From an uncultured archaeon (GTDB lineage: Archaea > Nanobdellota > Nanobdellia > Pacearchaeales > GW2011-AR1): a DNA stretch of 64,000 nucleotides. The DNA lies in NCBI GenBank assembly GCA_902386025.1, contig CABMHR010000001.1:177108-241107 (forward strand), read 5' to 3'. Below the pieces are notes generated by a model. It ran no database searches. It saw nothing but the letters and a program-made list of their open reading frames with translations, and had not been told where the DNA came from. How positions within the stretch are numbered: position 1 is the first letter of the stretch; the number at the start of each line of letters is the position of its first letter. Shown here one piece after another: positions 6,806-55,270 of this stretch. The position numbers were made by a program, and so were the translations under genes.

Positions 6806-6878
6806 GGGGCTATGGGGTAGTCTGGTAGCCTTCGAGGTTTGGGACCTCGCGACCCCGGTTCAAATCCGGGTAGCCCCA
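6806..6878 (+). tRNA. tRNA-Pro (anticodon UGG)
   Basis: Hand-folded cloverleaf. Acceptor GGGGCTA/TAGCCCC, anticodon stem CGAGG/CCTCG, loop TTTGGGA, T-arm CCCGG-TTCAAAT-CCGGG, discriminator A. No encoded CCA. Confidence 0.85.
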
Positions 6879-17630: not shown

Positions 17631-17975
17631 ATGGTAACAAGGGAAATAACAATAAAAGAAGCAAAGGGGGCATTTTCTATATTTAAGAAGCCCTCTAAGG
17701 GGAAGGAAGAATATGATTTCTCTGGGATATCTGCATTGAGGCAGGTGCTGGGCAATGAAAAAGCGAGGATATTAAGCGTCATAAAAAATGACAAGCCGAG
17801 TTCTTTATATGATTTGTCCAAGAAGCTTGGCAGGAATTTCAAGTCTGTTTACGCTGATTCTAAACTGCTTGAAAGATTTGGTTTTATAGAACTGGCTGAA
17901 GAGAAAGTAAATAACCGGACAAGATGCAAGCCAAAGATAGTAACAGATACCATAACAATACAAATTAAGATTTAA
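17631..17975 (+). CDS. Predicted winged-helix transcriptional regulator
   Basis: wHTH-like segment SLYDLSKKLGRNFKSVYADSKLLERFGFIEL. Confidence 0.4.
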   Translation: MVTREITIKEAKGAFSIFKKPSKGKEEYDFSGISALRQVLGNEKARILSVIKNDKPSSLYDLSKKLGRNFKSVYADSKLLERFGFIELAEEKVNNRTRCKPKIVTDTITIQIKI

Positions 17976-18451
17976 CTGTAAAGATTAAGGGAAACCTGAT
18001 AGTCTGTTCCTCCTCTTGTAAAGTCCTGAAATGCCCCCTGATAACTTGCTGTTTTATTCCCGCCTTGGAATTTTATCTTTTCCTGCTCATCTGCTGTAAT
18101 TTTAAATTCATATCCTTTTACTGCACTCTGGGTTCCAACATTCCATCCTTTTGTAACCATATTGCCTAAATTAGATTTTAATACATCACAGCTGTCTCTT
18201 CCATCAATGCATATATCTCCATTCTCGCAGGAAATTATCAATTCCTGCACAGGAAGAAATCCTATCTGGCTGTCGCAGTCTGTTGTATACTGCAGGCTTG
18301 ATTCTATAAAACTTTCAATTTCAGAATCTTGAACAATAGTCTGATCAGGAGTTTTTATCAAAAAACTAAGCAGGATTAGAAGGATTACCCCCACAATTAC
18401 TACAATCACTGCAAATCCAACCATCTCCTCTTGCGCTAATTTATCTCTCAT
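17972..18451 (-). CDS. Type IV pilin-like protein (class III signal peptide)
   Basis: MRDKLA|QEEMVGFAVIVVIVGVILLILL. A basic leader and +1 Gln are followed by a hydrophobic segment. Confidence 0.5.
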   Translation of the reverse strand: MRDKLAQEEMVGFAVIVVIVGVILLILLSFLIKTPDQTIVQDSEIESFIESSLQYTTDCDSQIGFLPVQELIISCENGDICIDGRDSCDVLKSNLGNMVTKGWNVGTQSAVKGYEFKITADEQEKIKFQGGNKTASYQGAFQDFTRGGTDYQVSLNLYS

Positions 18452-19074
18452 TGTGTTTTGTCCTCAGAACTAACCATTAATCTGGCAAGTTCGCATTTAT
18501 CATAAGCTCCTGTCCCGCCTGATTTCTTCCTGCACAGCGAGATAAAACTTGAACTGGAAGGCAGTGTTTTTACATTCTTGTCAAGGATTTTAAGAACCCC
18601 GCAATTTGGATAATTTTCCATATTGCATTCTATATTTCCAGAATCAGGATAAACTTTCCTTATTTCTATTTTTGCAACACCCCAGAAACCAGAAAATTTA
18701 TCTTTATTTTCTGAAAGAATTATAACTTTATCAAAATCAACGCAGTCTGTTCTGCTGCTCCCAAATGCATTTTCGCAGGATAACTCTGGAGAATTTGCAA
18801 GTTTTGATACAAGAAGAGTAGCTTCTTTTTCTGCAAGATTTGTAGCTGTTTTCTGAAGATTCTGCATTATTATGGATAGAAAAAACAATCCGACAAGAAC
18901 AAACAGGAAAGTAACTGCTATAATCATAAAAACCATCTGCTGTATTTTCATCTGAGCCGAGCGATTTCGCGGTATTAAGGCACGTGTCATGCAAGCGAAG
19001 TCGGGAGTAGAGCGATTTCGCGGTATTAAGGCACGTGTCATGCAAGCGAAGTCGGGAGTTTTTTTGTTTACCAT
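18448..19074 (-). CDS. Type IV pilin-like protein with two tandem copies of a 17-aa leader insert
   Basis: MVNKK[TPDFACMTRALIPRNRS]x2 AQM + hydrophobic. Confidence 0.55.
   Translation of the reverse strand: MVNKKTPDFACMTRALIPRNRSTPDFACMTRALIPRNRSAQMKIQQMVFMIIAVTFLFVLVGLFFLSIIMQNLQKTATNLAEKEATLLVSKLANSPELSCENAFGSSRTDCVDFDKVIILSENKDKFSGFWGVAKIEIRKVYPDSGNIECNMENYPNCGVLKILDKNVKTLPSSSSFISLCRKKSGGTGAYDKCELARLMVSSEDKTQ
18958..19059 (-). repeat. Two tandem copies of a 51-nt GC-rich in-frame element in a prepilin leader
   Basis: Sense strand is actcccgacttcgcttgcatgacacgtgccttaataccgcgaaatcgctc(t/g), twice. Confidence 0.85.
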
Positions 19075-20006
19075 AGCAGGCAGTCTCCGGCATTATTTAT
19101 TTCAGTTATAGCATCTGCTTCTGTCTTGACAATTCCCAATTCAGAAGAGCTTGTTAAATCTCCTGCAAGCTGGCTTAATTCATCCAAACTTCCTCCTGCA
19201 TTGTTGTCACATCCTTCTTTCTGGATAAGCATCCCTTTGTCTTTATACAGCAGAGAAATTTCTTCTAATCTAAGCATTAATCTTTTTATCTGGCATTCAT
19301 ATGCATCTTTGTCTGAAAATATTGCAGCATACATCAATGCGCTTGTCCCTTCTCCTGTTTCAGCAAAATACATAATTTTTCCGTCTTTCTCAACAGATTC
19401 AGAAGACAAGTCAACATTTATGTCGCAGTTTTCATTGTTGAAGCATATTCTTATTCCATTCTGGGCGCAGTTGTCTATAAGCAGATTGCTCTGGTTTAAA
19501 TTGAATATTTCCTGGCTTATCTCTTCAGGAGCGTCGACAAAGCAGTAGCTTTTTTTTGAAGAAGTCATGTAAATCAAGTCTGCAATTTTGAATGGGAAAT
19601 CAAAGGGTTTTGAGAAAATGTAAAATGTTTTTCCTTCTGTTTCATTGTCTGAGAAAATATATTTGTTTTCAAAAAAAATGTTCACGTCGGTTTTTACCCA
19701 TTTGTTGAAGCTTTTTTGCTCCAGTTGTATTCCCTGCTTCCCAAAATTCCCCGCACTGTCGCAGATGTTATGAATTCTTGTCTCTGTTGGGATTGTTATG
19801 GAAGTTGTCTGCGCTGTTTCGTAGCTTGTTTCCAGAGGATTTAACAAAGCATCTATTTCCTTTCCTGTCTTAGCGCTTACTGTTTCCTGCCCAGAATTAA
19901 TTAATTTTGAACTGAAATAAATAGCAAGAAAAATTATGACAATTCCCGCAATAAGAGCAAACAGCCAGCCAAAAGAAATTTCAAGCGCCCCTTTTTTTTC
20001 TTTCAT
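19068..20006 (-). CDS. Type IV pilin-like protein
   Basis: MKEKKGALEISFGWLFALIAGIVIIFLAIY. Confidence 0.55.
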   Translation of the reverse strand: MKEKKGALEISFGWLFALIAGIVIIFLAIYFSSKLINSGQETVSAKTGKEIDALLNPLETSYETAQTTSITIPTETRIHNICDSAGNFGKQGIQLEQKSFNKWVKTDVNIFFENKYIFSDNETEGKTFYIFSKPFDFPFKIADLIYMTSSKKSYCFVDAPEEISQEIFNLNQSNLLIDNCAQNGIRICFNNENCDINVDLSSESVEKDGKIMYFAETGEGTSALMYAAIFSDKDAYECQIKRLMLRLEEISLLYKDKGMLIQKEGCDNNAGGSLDELSQLAGDLTSSSELGIVKTEADAITEINNAGDCLLW

Positions 20007-20110
20007 AAATAAAAATACCGAATATAACTTATAAATTTTCCTAATATTTTTTTCTTTCTTATTCTCTTGCCCCTTTCTATCATTGTAGGTTCTTTTTTAA
20101 AAGAACCTCA

Positions 20111-20593
20111 TTATCTTGTAATAGTTACTAATGTCTCCCCGTAATTTTTTACAATATTCATGCTTATTTTTCCCTTGACATTCTGGATGCAGAATGGATT
20201 TTCATCTTTGATTGTTTTTGCAATATCAATATTTTCAATTTTCTTTCCTGCAATTATGCTTTTGGAGGTGAATTTCATATTTTCAAACTCATCATTCTGA
20301 AAACATACAGAACTAATCTTTGTGGGCAGAGAATATTTCACGCTTTGGCTTCCTTCGCTGCTCTTCCACATTTTGTTTACATCTTCCTGAAAATTTTGCG
20401 AGAAGGTTTGTATCTGCACATCCTGCTGCATATTCAAAAATTTTGTTATAGCATAAAATCCAAAGACAAGAAAAACAATTATAAGAATAATGGAAAAAAT
20501 CATTCCGAATGATAAATTCATCTGTGCCGAGCGATTTCGCGGAATTAAGGCACGTGTTATGCAAGCGGGTTCGCGAGTTTTCTTATCCATCAT
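20111..20593 (-). CDS. Type IV pilin-like protein with leader insert
   Basis: MMDKK[TREPACITRALIPRNRS]AQMNLSFGMIFSIILIIVF. Confidence 0.55.
   Translation of the reverse strand: MMDKKTREPACITRALIPRNRSAQMNLSFGMIFSIILIIVFLVFGFYAITKFLNMQQDVQIQTFSQNFQEDVNKMWKSSEGSQSVKYSLPTKISSVCFQNDEFENMKFTSKSIIAGKKIENIDIAKTIKDENPFCIQNVKGKISMNIVKNYGETLVTITR
20528..20578 (-). repeat. 51-nt GC-rich in-frame element copy
   Basis: Sense strand is actcgcgaacccgcttgcataacacgtgccttaattccgcgaaatcgctcg. Confidence 0.85.
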
Positions 20594-41059: not shown

Positions 41060-41995
41060 TTAATTCCTTATTTCCTGCATAACAAACATTCCTTTTGCAA
41101 AAACATTTACTTCGTTAAGAACTTTGAACATTCCGACAAATCTGCTATTTGAAAACCCGCAGACAATTTGATTCTTTTCAGCTTTCACTTTATTTTCCAA
41201 ATCCTTTTCATATACTGGCTGTCCGTGCATTATTCTTTCTACAGGCTCTTCCTTAATTTCCACAACAGGATAAACTTCGCTGATAATTTCAGCAGGAATA
41301 ATAATTTCTCTAATCAGTTTATCATTTCCCTTTTCATATTCCTCAACTGCCTTTTCAAATTTCTCCTTGCTAACCATCTCTTTACTTTTGAAAATTCCTG
41401 CTCGGATTCTTTTTAATCCAGTCATATGCGCCCCTATTTTCATTTCCTCCCCCAAATCATGAATAAGTTTTCTTATGTAAGTTCCGCCTTGGCATTCAAC
41501 CCTGAAATAAACTTCTTTTCCGTCTTTTTTCAGCAGTTCAAATTTTTTTATTTCTCTTTCTCTTTCCTGCCTTTTGACTTTTGAGCGAACAGGGGGAAGC
41601 TGTATAATCGTCCCCATAAATTTTTCTTCTATAACTTTTTTTATTTCCTCAAGAGAAACATCTTCGTGAATTCTCATCACTCCTTCATATTCCTTGTCTT
41701 CTCCTATAAAAAATCCGCTTAATTTTACTGCTCTGTTTAACGCAACAGGCAAAACTCCAGTAACCATCGGATCCAATGTTCCAAAATGGCTTGTTTTCCT
41801 TAATTTCAGTTTTTTTCTCACAAAATCAACAACATCAAAGCTCGTGCAGTCCGAACGACTTTGCGATGATGAAGCCAGTGATGAGTGAGCGGGGTCGAGA
41901 GTTGTAGGTTTGTCAAAATTTATAATTCCAAATTCAAGAAGTTCCTTAATCGATTTTGTTGATTTTATTTTTTCAAGATTTATTTTTGCATCCAT
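41060..41995 (-). CDS. cbf5: H/ACA RNP pseudouridine synthase Cbf5 (TruB family + PUA), with a 19-aa GC-rich in-frame insert
   Basis: FDKP...KTSHFGTLDPMVTG. An extra TLDPAHSSLASSSQSRSDC segment lies between the motifs. Confidence 0.7.
   Translation of the reverse strand: MDAKINLEKIKSTKSIKELLEFGIINFDKPTTLDPAHSSLASSSQSRSDCTSFDVVDFVRKKLKLRKTSHFGTLDPMVTGVLPVALNRAVKLSGFFIGEDKEYEGVMRIHEDVSLEEIKKVIEEKFMGTIIQLPPVRSKVKRQEREREIKKFELLKKDGKEVYFRVECQGGTYIRKLIHDLGEEMKIGAHMTGLKRIRAGIFKSKEMVSKEKFEKAVEEYEKGNDKLIREIIIPAEIISEVYPVVEIKEEPVERIMHGQPVYEKDLENKVKAEKNQIVCGFSNSRFVGMFKVLNEVNVFAKGMFVMQEIRN
41846..41902 (-). repeat. Diverged 57-nt copy of the GC-rich element, inserted in-frame in cbf5
   Basis: Sense strand is actctcgaccccgctcactcatcactggcttcatcatcgcaaagtcgttcggactgc. 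It shares an exact 10-mer and ~70% ungapped identity with the pilin-leader element. Confidence 0.5.
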
Positions 41996-42681
41996 TTTTT
42001 CCTCTCCTCTGGAGAAAACTTCTCAATAGAATATCTAAGCATTGTCCTAGGCATTTCCTTGTTTCTTGAAGCAAGAAATATTTCAAGAACATTTTTGTTT
42101 TTCTTTCCAACTTCTCTCAAAGCCCAGCCGACAGCCTTGTGGATTAAATCGTGCTCGTCGTGAAGAAGCATTTCGGATATTGCAAGAGTTTCCCCTAATT
42201 TTCCTTTGCGTATGAACTGAAGTGTTGATATTATCGCAATTCTTCTCTCCCAGAGATTGTCTGATTTAGCAAGCATCTTCAGAATATCTGTTCCTTCTCT
42301 AATCAGAAAATCTCCGACAATATTTGGGGCAGACAAATCAACCAAATCCCAGTTGTTTATGTTTCTTGTATTCTTCATATAAAATTCATAAATTTTTCTT
42401 TTTTCAAGATTGTCTTTTTTTGCTTTTTTATATTTATTATTAAGTATTAAAAGTGCAGCCATTCTGTATTCGTGAAATTTGCTGTTAAGAAGAGTTTGCA
42501 ATTCTAAGAAGGATAAATTGGTGTATTTTTTTATGATTGCCCTCTGCTGTGGCATTGTCAGCCCAAGAAATACATCTCCTTCTCCGTATTCTCCTTTTCC
42601 TGTTTTGAAAAATCTCTGATATCCTTTTGCTTTCTCGGGATTTCTGCTTTTCTCAATCTCATTTGTTAATTCATTAAGCAT
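41980..42681 (-). CDS. DNA alkylation repair protein (AlkD/AlkC-like HEAT-repeat glycosylase)
   Basis: YQRFFKTGKGEYGEGDVFLGLTMP...NNWDLVD...WALREVGK. Confidence 0.6.
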   Translation of the reverse strand: MLNELTNEIEKSRNPEKAKGYQRFFKTGKGEYGEGDVFLGLTMPQQRAIIKKYTNLSFLELQTLLNSKFHEYRMAALLILNNKYKKAKKDNLEKRKIYEFYMKNTRNINNWDLVDLSAPNIVGDFLIREGTDILKMLAKSDNLWERRIAIISTLQFIRKGKLGETLAISEMLLHDEHDLIHKAVGWALREVGKKNKNVLEIFLASRNKEMPRTMLRYSIEKFSPEERKKWMQK

Positions 42682-42682
42682 T

Positions 42683-43702
42683 TTAAACCTCTTCTGATTC
42701 TGTTTCAATTCTGTCGTAAGTGGGAAATTCTTCAACTCTTGTTATCTTTTCTTTCCCGAGAAGCTTTCTTGCAATTGGTTCTGAAAGGATTGTTCTTTTC
42801 TTTTTCTCGTCGTAAAAAACACCTTCTCCTTTCATCTTTTTATTCACAATAAGGTAGATAACTGTTCCGTCTTCTGTTCTTTTTCCGTAAGGGAGAATTT
42901 TGTGCTTTTTCAGCCTGTTCTTATACTGATAATCATTCTTGAGTTTTGCAGAGCACAGATGAATTTTCAGTTTTGATTTTTCTTTTGACAATTCTTCCAA
43001 AATCCATTTTCCAGATTCAAGGCTTCCAGCAATAACATATCCACCTTCTTTTAATTTGTATCTTGCAACTATTGCCTGAAAATTTGTTTCTGAAAGTTCA
43101 AATTCATTAAGATTCACAAATCCTATGTAATCTTCTGCTCCTTTTATAAAATCAAGAATTTCCTCTTTTCTTTCTGGAATCATAGGAAGTTCTATGCCGA
43201 TATTTTCTTTTTTCCAGAATTTTGAAGCCATTTCTATTTTCTTCAAATCTTCTACAGTTGTATCTGGCTTAATAAGGAATTCGGGGTGAAAGCGGACTTC
43301 ATCAGCAACTCTTGCTATTCTTTTCAGTTTTCTTTCTGCAACAAGTTTTGTCGGAAGATAAATATGAATATGAAATTCCTTTCCAAATCTTTTTTTTAAT
43401 GCAGAAGCAAGCCGAACTGTTCTCCCTGTGCAAAGCAGAGGGTCTCCTCCTGTTATTCCTGCCCCTGTTGCCCTGCTTTCATCTGCTTCCTGAATTATCT
43501 CTTTTGCATTTCTGCATGTTCTCTCATTTGCATATGTTTCATTCTTGTTTTTTCTTTTCCTGCTTAAAGAGCAATACCAGCAGTTTCTTGAGCATTTTCC
43601 TGTAACAAACAAAACAAGCTTGTCTCCTTTTACGCAGTGTCTGCATCCTTCTGCAAATCCATTAAGGCAGTAAGAATCAAATTTTGTTTTCTTGATTTTC
43701 AT
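42683..43702 (-). CDS. Radical SAM protein with N-terminal zinc-ribbon-like Cys cluster
   Basis: CSRNCWYC (Cx3Cx2C). Confidence 0.55.
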   Translation of the reverse strand: MKIKKTKFDSYCLNGFAEGCRHCVKGDKLVLFVTGKCSRNCWYCSLSRKRKNKNETYANERTCRNAKEIIQEADESRATGAGITGGDPLLCTGRTVRLASALKKRFGKEFHIHIYLPTKLVAERKLKRIARVADEVRFHPEFLIKPDTTVEDLKKIEMASKFWKKENIGIELPMIPERKEEILDFIKGAEDYIGFVNLNEFELSETNFQAIVARYKLKEGGYVIAGSLESGKWILEELSKEKSKLKIHLCSAKLKNDYQYKNRLKKHKILPYGKRTEDGTVIYLIVNKKMKGEGVFYDEKKKRTILSEPIARKLLGKEKITRVEEFPTYDRIETESEEV

Positions 43703-54667: not shown

Positions 54668-55270
54668 TTACTTCGCCTTTATTTTTACATCAAAGAAATC
54701 ACTTGCATAAGCAGTTTCTCCTGCCTTGACTTCTATCTTGAATCTTGCAGTGCATAACGGAGAGCCGACAGGAATGTCAAATAAAACTTTTCTGACTATG
54801 CTGTCCCCGCTTGGGATTGACAAACTATCTTCTGCTTTTCCTAATATAATCCAGCTTTCAGCTTCTTCCTTGCTTATTCCGCAGTTTCCAACATCAGATG
54901 CAGATACAGCATAAGAAAAAGTGCTCTGTGCATTTGCTCCTTCCTGCAGATTCTTAATTCCAAAACCAACTCCGTCAGTTGAAGTCTGCGCTATTTCAAC
55001 AAGTCTTGTTCCGGGATATACTGACATCTTGTTGTCTTCTGAAAATAATTTATTTATTTCATTTCTTAACTGCTGGTCTGTCAAATCAACAACACCTGTT
55101 GCAGATTTTGAAATTTTTTGTATTAAGAATATTCCTCCAATCAAAAGAGTAACAAGAAGAACAATTGTGACAATTGTTCCTATTGACATTTCCATTTGCC
55201 CCGAGCGATTTCGCGGTATTAAGGCACGTGTCATGCAAGCGGGGTCGCGAGCTTTATATTTGTTTTTCAT
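54668..55270 (-). CDS. Type IV pilin-like protein with leader insert
   Basis: MKNKYK[ARDPACMTRALIPRNRS]GQMEMSIGTIVTIVLLVTLLIGG. Confidence 0.55.
   Translation of the reverse strand: MKNKYKARDPACMTRALIPRNRSGQMEMSIGTIVTIVLLVTLLIGGIFLIQKISKSATGVVDLTDQQLRNEINKLFSEDNKMSVYPGTRLVEIAQTSTDGVGFGIKNLQEGANAQSTFSYAVSASDVGNCGISKEEAESWIILGKAEDSLSIPSGDSIVRKVLFDIPVGSPLCTARFKIEVKAGETAYASDFFDVKIKAK
55202..55252 (-). repeat. 51-nt GC-rich in-frame element copy
   Basis: Sense strand is gctcgcgaccccgcttgcatgacacgtgccttaataccgcgaaatcgctcg. Confidence 0.85.

Follow-up and report, generated by a model that had tools for sequence, protein, structure and literature searches.

A GC-rich patch in an archaeal cbf5 gene is probably a decayed, translated copy of a dispersed 51-nt repeat found in prepilin leaders

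The gene encoding the H/ACA pseudouridine synthase Cbf5 is located on the minus strand at positions 41060-41995 of the window, as we call the whole 64,000-nt stretch of DNA that was analysed, and encodes a protein of 311 amino acids. It contains a GC-rich, in-frame extra patch, which raises the question of whether this sequence is an intron or is translated. Archaeal mRNA introns are very rare, and the patch looked like a candidate for a second one; the evidence points away from this. We see in the patch an old, partly decayed copy of a dispersed, coding-compatible, GC-rich repeat of 51 nt, which is translated and which occurs in DPANN archaea of the Pacearchaeota/Woesearchaeota type, and we put the probability of this reading at roughly 0.7. 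Selfish DNA inside essential genes is unexpected in the tiny genomes of DPANN archaea. The window itself is AT-rich (~34% GC) and archaeal; its RNA genes are two tRNAs, an archaeal RNase P RNA and the LSU rRNA, of which it contains the 3' end.

To define the insert, we compared the window Cbf5, which reads GIINFDKPT-TLDPAHSSLASSSQSRS-DCTSFDVV, with its 120 closest orthologs. Its closest relatives are annotated as Pacearchaeota or Nanoarchaeota, and its best solved structural homologues are archaeal Cbf5 structures. The motif runs without insert, DKP(A)DCTSFD, in 115 of the 120, and 17-18 extra residues follow DKP in the other five (the window protein, P0002, P0003, P0006 and P0010). The patch is present where the first-pass annotation had indicated it. 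The DNA of a syntenic ortholog shows the empty site as TTT GAT AAG CCT GCT/GAT TGC. Because the orthologs and this syntenic empty site keep DC as native residues, the insert comprises 17 amino acids and 51 nt, at 41852-41902 of the minus strand, between the Thr/Ala codon that follows DKP and the native DCTSF. The 57 nt and 19 amino acids given before were right as to extra sequence, whereas their length overshot by 6 nt, taking in the native DC.

Related copies are carried by the cbf5 genes of five lineages. At the DNA level the inserts of the window, L002 and L003 have both ends in common, ACTCTCGACCCYGCT... and ...CGCRAAGTCGTTCG; each of them follows an Ala/Thr codon and precedes GAC. The insert of L001 (P0010) is a complete unit of the type found in pilin genes, placed one codon upstream, between CCA and GCA. 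Thus cbf5 has been struck at two sites 3 nt apart. The middle of the cbf5 copies has drifted to a hydrophilic sequence rich in Ser, Thr, Asn and Asp, with zero stops. Codon-position identity is 0.79/0.86/0.57 in the flanks and roughly flat across positions in the insert. An AlphaFold2 (AF2) model shows Cbf5 residues 36-47 as a loop with pLDDT below 50, between the strand at 24-29 and the helix at 52-63.

A repeat search of the window recovered the pilin element as a 51-nt unit in four copies, all on the minus strand. The prepilin gene at 54668-55270 carries one copy in its leader at 55202-55252 (MKNKYK-[ARDPACMTRALIPRNRS]-G/QMEMSIG, the slash marking predicted cleavage), and the prepilin-like gene at 20111-20593 carries another at 20528-20578 (MMDKK-[TREPACITRALIPRNRS]-A/QMNLSFG). 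Two tandem copies, 18958-19008 and 19009-19059, occupy 18958-19059 in the leader of the prepilin-like gene at 18448-19074. With the unit taken out, the window pilins read MVNKK/AQM..., MDKK/AQM... and MKNKYK/GQM..., the slash here marking the point of removal. The element is absent from two paralogous prepilin-like genes of the same strand, at 19068-20006 (MKEKKG/ALEISFGWLFALIAG, that is MKEKKG/ALEISFG) and 17972-18451 (MRDKLA/QEEMVGF); two of the four clustered window pilin genes carry it. Element-bearing counterparts of both empty genes were found: L024 has MKKN-[17 aa]-G/VLDISFGWLFALIAG for the former, and relatives of the latter in L008, L020 and L045 have one or two copies before G/QEEMVGF. 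Read from sequence, the host genes encode a short basic leader with Gly or Ala at -1 followed by a hydrophobic helix, as in class III (prepilin) signal peptides, with cleavage predicted. No Pfam model matches the element-bearing pilin proteins.

The cbf5 insert and the pilin element agree in length, 51 nt being exactly the unit length given by the tandem spacing, and in reading frame, as the first-pass annotation had noticed. The exact 10-mer CGACCCCGCT named by it lies at 41888-41897 and at 55238-55247; with up to one mismatch the 10-mer has five matches in place of 0.28 expected, a number reached in 0 of 100 shuffles. The ungapped identity, claimed as about 36 of 50 positions, came to 34 of 52 in our hand count against the 55-kb pilin copy. 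We then scored the window with a weight matrix (PWM) made from 16 copies of other genomes, leaving out the window and the cbf5 sequences. The cbf5 insert scored 35.7 bits and ranked fifth among 127,900 window positions, in the exact register 41852-41902; ranks 1-4 are the four pilin copies, and the next position after the cbf5 insert scored -12.7. When the insert was shuffled 100,000 times, the observed score was never matched. An nhmmer profile built from pilin copies only missed the window cbf5 copy (E <= 10), whereas it matched two other cbf5 inserts, that of L001 with E = 1e-11 and that of L003 with E = 0.008; when these two cbf5 copies were added to the profile, the window copy was found with E = 7.5e-7. 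Since the pilin-only profile reaches L001 and L003 and not the window copy, the link between the window insert and the pilin element is partly transitive. On the weight matrix and nhmmer, homology of the cbf5 insert to the pilin-leader element is solid.

Pattern scans of species-representative genomes and metagenome contigs returned chance matches in GC-rich bacteria and ~20 distinct true copies. The contigs with true copies are AT-rich, carry the DPANN labels Pacearchaeota, Woesearchaeota or Nanoarchaeota, and originate from independent MAGs and metagenomes. Taken with the five copies of the window, they lie in pilin genes, cbf5, pheT, one ORF (L047) and intergenic DNA, in keeping with the earlier suggestion of a family of small in-frame insertion elements that extends beyond pilin genes. 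Most copies are in prepilin-like genes, where orientation and frame are constant (T/A-R-D-P-A-C-I-T-L-x-L-T-P-R-N-R-S) and where the element always abuts, on the 5' side, the codon for Gly/Ala at -1 in the class III signal peptide, a placement that recurs in more than 12 different pilin families. Prepilin leaders hold one, two or three tandem units (multiples for example in L008, L017/L025, L019 and L045). The L047 protein, of no assigned function, begins MPTT-[unit]-GIVPVPG. An antisense, in-frame copy is located inside pheT in two genomes, L016 and L038 (Pfam B5 and PheRS-beta CLM domain), in a variable stretch between GRTAEI and IGFLGE, and intergenic copies stand beside tRNA genes in L011/L028, L027 and L041.

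The consensus is free of stops in four of its six reading frames, and three of the four are seen in use. Sense frame 1 is read in pilins, cbf5 and L047, and sense frame 3 is the second frame used, in a long pilin leader of L005. No copy examined is so placed in an intact ORF that a frame with stops would be read. Most copies have 51 nt, and the length variants are all multiples of 3, namely 45 nt (L019 near position 1620-1664, L051 and P0204), 54 nt (L002, L019a and P0002) and 63 nt (P0222), evidence that comes in part from called proteins, which favours open frames.

To learn what becomes of a copy with time, we followed the 55-kb pilin through 120 retrieved orthologs; the loci examined are syntenic and lie next to cysS. 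Short leaders of 5-17 residues with no insert are found in 90 of the 120, with Lys or Arg at -2 in 69 of these 90. A recognisable element ending ...NRS-[GA] is present in 12, all of which have Ser at -2. In a further 10 the leader is long and AT-rich, with clearly decayed units that are still in frame, such as MKNK-SQKLEIFSYNFLRKNRR-A/QMEMS and MKSK-RVHRNSLCNLPKDRK-A/AMEMS, and here Lys or Arg stands at -2 in 10 of 10. At the DNA level two of these decayed leaders are AT-rich and in frame, with 51 and 45 nt, and keep AAT-CG(T/C). The remaining 8 orthologs were called from an internal Met; we looked upstream of two of them for frame-broken copies and found ordinary empty sites with a mis-called start. 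Filled alleles share up to 92% identity with empty orthologs in the mature part, in four sub-lineages. Decayed leaders thus keep the frame and regain Lys or Arg at -2, indicating selection on a translated peptide. A sequence removed from the mRNA would neither keep its frame nor approach the signal-peptide consensus, which again indicates translation. By sequence, the insert is most likely retained in the mRNA, not spliced out, and its translation gives a harmless loop. Translation of the cbf5 insert would yield the peptide TLDPAHSSLASSSQSR, and removal would yield the junction peptide DKPTDCTSF.

At the nucleotide level, fresh copies are 85-96% identical between genomes and host genes; between the sense pilin copy of L023 and the antisense pheT copy of L038, 2 of 51 positions are different. 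The final 23 nt at the 3' end (CCTTAAYTCCGCGAAATCGCTCG) are nearly invariant across genomes, third codon positions included, and the changes in the 5' half do not favour third positions, indicating constraint or copy youth at the level of the nucleotide and not of the peptide. The Arg, Pro and Ser codons in CCTTAAYTCCGCGAAATCGCTCG are expected to be rare at ~34% GC. An effect of this kind on the 3' 23 nt could come from recent spread, from a recognition site or from another function.

The main home of the repeat is the prepilin leader, directly 5' of the -1 Gly/Ala codon, where a translated copy would lengthen a peptide that is due to be cleaved off in any case; occasional copies land in other genes in either orientation. 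In Cbf5 the copy would form a flexible, Ser-rich surface loop leading from the first strand (GIINFDKP) to the first helix (TSFDVV) of the catalytic domain. The element may accordingly be pictured as a non-autonomous selfish repeat whose survivors would be the copies in tolerated, frame-compatible places. We infer selfish or mobile behaviour here, and 'mobile element' is used as a label that carries no mechanism. That more than 12 pilin families carry the element at just this point before the -1 codon is not explained by random insertion followed by selection. It points to a preference for the site, or else to an exchange of alleles between the N-termini of homologous pilins.

Neither hairpin nor mobilising gene was found for the element. 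Terminal inverted repeats are absent, with 0-5 of 12 positions matching, and 19 of 21 copies have no target-site duplication; the two 'CCCA' cases share a longer common flank. The repeat resembles MITEs in being short, of non-coding size and multi-copy, in lying within genes or between them and in its presence/absence polymorphism, but it differs from them in having no terminal inverted repeats, no target-site duplication and no identified related autonomous IS, and we rejected MITE identity on the first two of these points. A blastn search of phage and plasmid collections gave no match, and a single pattern match on a viral contig proved to be a GC-rich chance match. A protein-level profile made from the tripled peptide gave 3 matches, at E-values that are too strict for 17 residues against 5.8 billion sequences. 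As a tentative extension, which we hold to be possible rather than probable, the 51-nt unit could represent a new kind of mobile DNA in archaea, with a 'safe harbour' at the codon boundary in front of the prepilin cleavage site, to which it would home and where the encoded peptide would be lost together with the leader. The enzyme or recombination route moving it would involve neither inverted repeats nor target duplication, and rare off-target insertions would give rise to loops in essential proteins such as Cbf5 and PheRS-beta.

That many unrelated pilin families have the element at an invariant point before the -1 codon would also be expected if the sequence were a functional nucleic-acid motif of prepilin genes, either a site at which recombination or gene conversion reassorts leaders with pilin bodies, or one bound by a regulator of pilin expression, the copies in cbf5, pheT and beside tRNAs being decaying by-products. 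Conservation of the 3' 23 nt at all codon positions across genomes, the tandem arrays of 2-3 units and the presence of the element in two of the four clustered window pilin genes fit such a motif. We nevertheless judge this alternative unlikely, given that 90 of 120 orthologous pilins do without the element and that it decays freely once present, that unrelated genes contain it in either orientation and intergenic DNA has it too, and that no recombinase or regulator is linked to it. In addition, the pilin copies are all oriented with the gene, so that recombination between them would delete and not invert.

A removal of the element from the mRNA, whether as a BHB intron cut by the tRNA splicing endonuclease, by another RNA excision or by ribosomal bypass, was the second alternative, and the first-pass annotation had thought an intron-like reading worth testing. 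What speaks for it is that excision of exactly 51 nt restores the consensus Cbf5 motif as well as textbook class III signal peptides, and that conserved ends around a variable middle recall the crenarchaeal cbf5 introns. The likeness to the latter includes the same gene, a short length of tens of nt and a lineage-specific occurrence (PMC2738675). Endonucleases of broad specificity are present in the TACK superphylum and in ARMAN archaea (PMC7714728). The crenarchaeal cbf5 intron, however, interrupts the codon of the catalytic Asp, in GTLDP, after its first base (PMC2738675), whereas the present insert follows DKP(A), ~25 residues upstream. The crenarchaeal introns differ further from the present family in that the latter has no BHB, that every copy is in frame and stop-free, and that homologous copies occur in other genes and in antisense.

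In a BHB substrate, two bulges of 3 nt stand on either side of a helix of 4 bp (PMC7714728), and the cut follows the second base of the bulge (PMC2738675). We enumerated all cut-site pairs in 8 copies and found no BHB at the insertion borders. When excision of the exact length was forced at offsets from -4 to +4 in 11 copies, at most three of the four central pairs formed, at inconsistent offsets. The pilins have no BHB because the end of exon 1 is A-rich (Lys codons) and the invariant 3' end of the element, AAATCGCTCG, offers no partner for it. The sole recurrent pairing, in which ACUC pairs with the start of the Gly codon and GCGA with UCGC inside the element, is mostly internal to the element, and its handedness is the mirror of the canonical one, the bulges being on the wrong side of the central helix. 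A structure drawn by hand for the 55-kb pilin copy (AA/A-GCUC-GCGA...UCGC-UC/G-GGGC) was set aside: its bulges lie 5' of the strands of the central helix and the other copies do not reproduce it. By comparison with the canonical tRNA intron, from which the handedness was derived, it would be the mirror of a real BHB.

Folding pointed in the same direction. Single sequences fold no better than their shuffles (MFE z from +0.46 to -1.0), and RNAalifold on 21 copies gave -2 kcal/mol with 6 pairs and one double change, with no conserved fold; the double change, CG to UA in a weak terminal helix, speaks for removal. Rfam gave no match at the gathering threshold or at E <= 10. A BHB intron would be expected to be free of the reading frame in length and content, and the copies have 45, 51, 54 or 63 nt with no in-frame stop, all length variants being multiples of 3. 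It would also be expected to act in the sense strand only, and an antisense copy lies in the open pheT ORF of two genomes, where there is therefore no strand-specific RNA signal. The decayed pilin copies described above, which stay in frame and regain Lys or Arg at -2, argue against removal by any route. Translational bypassing was dropped after hand inspection of the pilin copies revealed no matching take-off and landing codons. Altogether, a BHB intron is not supported, and we regard removal from the mRNA as highly improbable. That the likeness of the cbf5 insert to the pilin element is chance between GC-rich, low-complexity sequences is a negligible prospect, for although the middle third of the insert is unrelated to the pilin element and the pilin-only nhmmer profile has no match to the window copy at E <= 10, the rank of 5 among 127,900 at the exact register, the 0 of 100,000 shuffles, the equal length of 51 nt and the intermediates of L001 (E = 1e-11) and L003 at the same place in cbf5 refute it.

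Two other candidates were considered and rejected. C/D-box or k-turn motifs were poor by eye. A TATA-like TTAAYT promoter giving leaderless transcripts from a downstream ATG is inapplicable to cbf5 and to pilins that have no nearby ATG.

Returning to a translated, dispersed repeat, its closest analogue is provided by the Rickettsia palindromic elements (RPEs), selfish repeats that are inserted in frame in unrelated protein-coding genes (PMC10969869). Both are short multi-copy repeats dispersed in small AT-rich genomes, both lie inside unrelated housekeeping ORFs that are left open, and in both a copy encodes a conserved peptide at a place that the protein tolerates, and copies decay over time. 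The 51-nt repeat is present in multiple copies in unrelated genes and genomes, is in frame, and occupies tolerated sites, namely the low-pLDDT loop of Cbf5, the cleaved pilin leader and the variable pheT stretch. It differs from RPEs in its length, 51 nt as against about 100-150 bp, and in being neither palindromic nor hairpin-forming (consensus fold of -2 kcal/mol, 6 pairs). Its host is archaeal, it uses both orientations with frequent tandem units, and it strongly prefers one exact site, before the prepilin -1 codon. Short GC-rich or structured inserts that spread in AT-rich or compact genomes are also known from the mobile BHB introns of Thermoproteales tRNA genes and from the 'byp' elements of yeast mitochondria. 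In those cases the insert is taken out of the RNA or the ribosome skips it, whereas the evidence for the 51-nt repeat points to plain translation.

We searched the literature on DPANN pilins, repeats and introns and found no matching description of the 51-nt repeat, and an in-frame family of this kind in DPANN archaea appears to be previously undescribed. The series from a fresh copy through a decayed copy to a domesticated leader or loop would illustrate the birth of protein loops and of longer signal peptides. For annotation, GC-rich in-frame patches in such genomes should not be called introns, and pilin leaders with 17-51 extra residues may escape signal-peptide predictors. Finally, a 12-nt stretch of identity connects the element with tRNA-Pro, and copies adjoin the 3' ends of tRNA genes; at the level of sequence this is suggestive of a tRNA origin of the element.

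The pilin leader of L005, one of the element-bearing loci from other DPANN genomes and metagenome contigs, combines a native-looking leader (...KFFYLRNRRG/TILVENV; 1094-1140) with a fresh copy of the 51-nt GC-rich element farther upstream. The DNA of the native-looking leader (TTGCGAAATCGCAGAGGA) retains 9 nt from the 3' end of the element, apparently what is left of an earlier copy that occupied the usual site and has since decayed. The older copy, together with the fresh upstream one, would thus represent two insertion generations within a single leader.

Extended C-rich flanks, CCCA before the 51-nt unit and CCCACCC after it, are common to the copies of L005 (1031-1105) and L038 (726-800), which lie in differing contexts, and flanks of a similar kind are also found at the L016 and L027 copies. 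This sharing suggests a longer element subfamily rather than target duplication. Four copies have GGGC as their 3' flank, and in three of these, namely that of the prepilin gene near 55 kb of the window (55252), L039 and L017, the unit begins with G where A is usual; among copies lacking this flank, the first base is G in L001 only. The occurrence of G alongside GGGC may reflect junction microhomology or relatedness of the copies.

Antisense copies of the element adjoin tRNA genes at L011 (2270-2440; equivalent to L028), L027 (~960-1080) and L041 (6040-6190). The L011 copy lies 31 nt downstream of tRNA-Gln(CTG) and is bracketed by AGGTTCGA on one side and A-CTGGTGGGGCTA, followed by a T-run, on the other; the bracketing sequence is a second copy of the T-loop and 3' end of this tRNA, split by the element. 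The L027 copy is followed by TGGGTAGGGCTAA, and in L041 the element copy is located 18 nt downstream of a tRNA. In the window, 12 consecutive bases (CTCGCGACCCCG) are common to the 5' end of the element and a plus-strand tRNA-Pro gene (6806-6878), where they occupy 6845-6856, the top non-element position in the window for a weight matrix built from 16 copies in other genomes. The identity could be due to chance or hint at the origin of the element.

The four consecutive minus-strand prepilin-like genes of the window (17972-20593) encode class III-type leaders and gave no Pfam matches; two of them carry the element, one of these twice, and it is absent from the other two. The start of cbf5 overlaps by 16 nt (41980-41995) the end of an upstream DNA-alkylation-repair-like ORF (41980-42735), and the gene order radical-SAM, alkylation-repair, cbf5 is seen again at the locus of the cbf5 ortholog P0002 and at L002 and L055.

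We also noticed, at ~354-515 of L016 in the minus-strand pheT ORF, a second GC-rich in-frame patch, unrelated to the antisense 51-nt element of this gene. The stretch with the patch is ETGKVF-GGWGGRGAIGSDWA-ETENLALAIAPANF; at the corresponding place L038 (compared over 25-915) reads EIGKVF-NPN-ETENLALAIAPANF. The patch may belong to another in-frame insert family.
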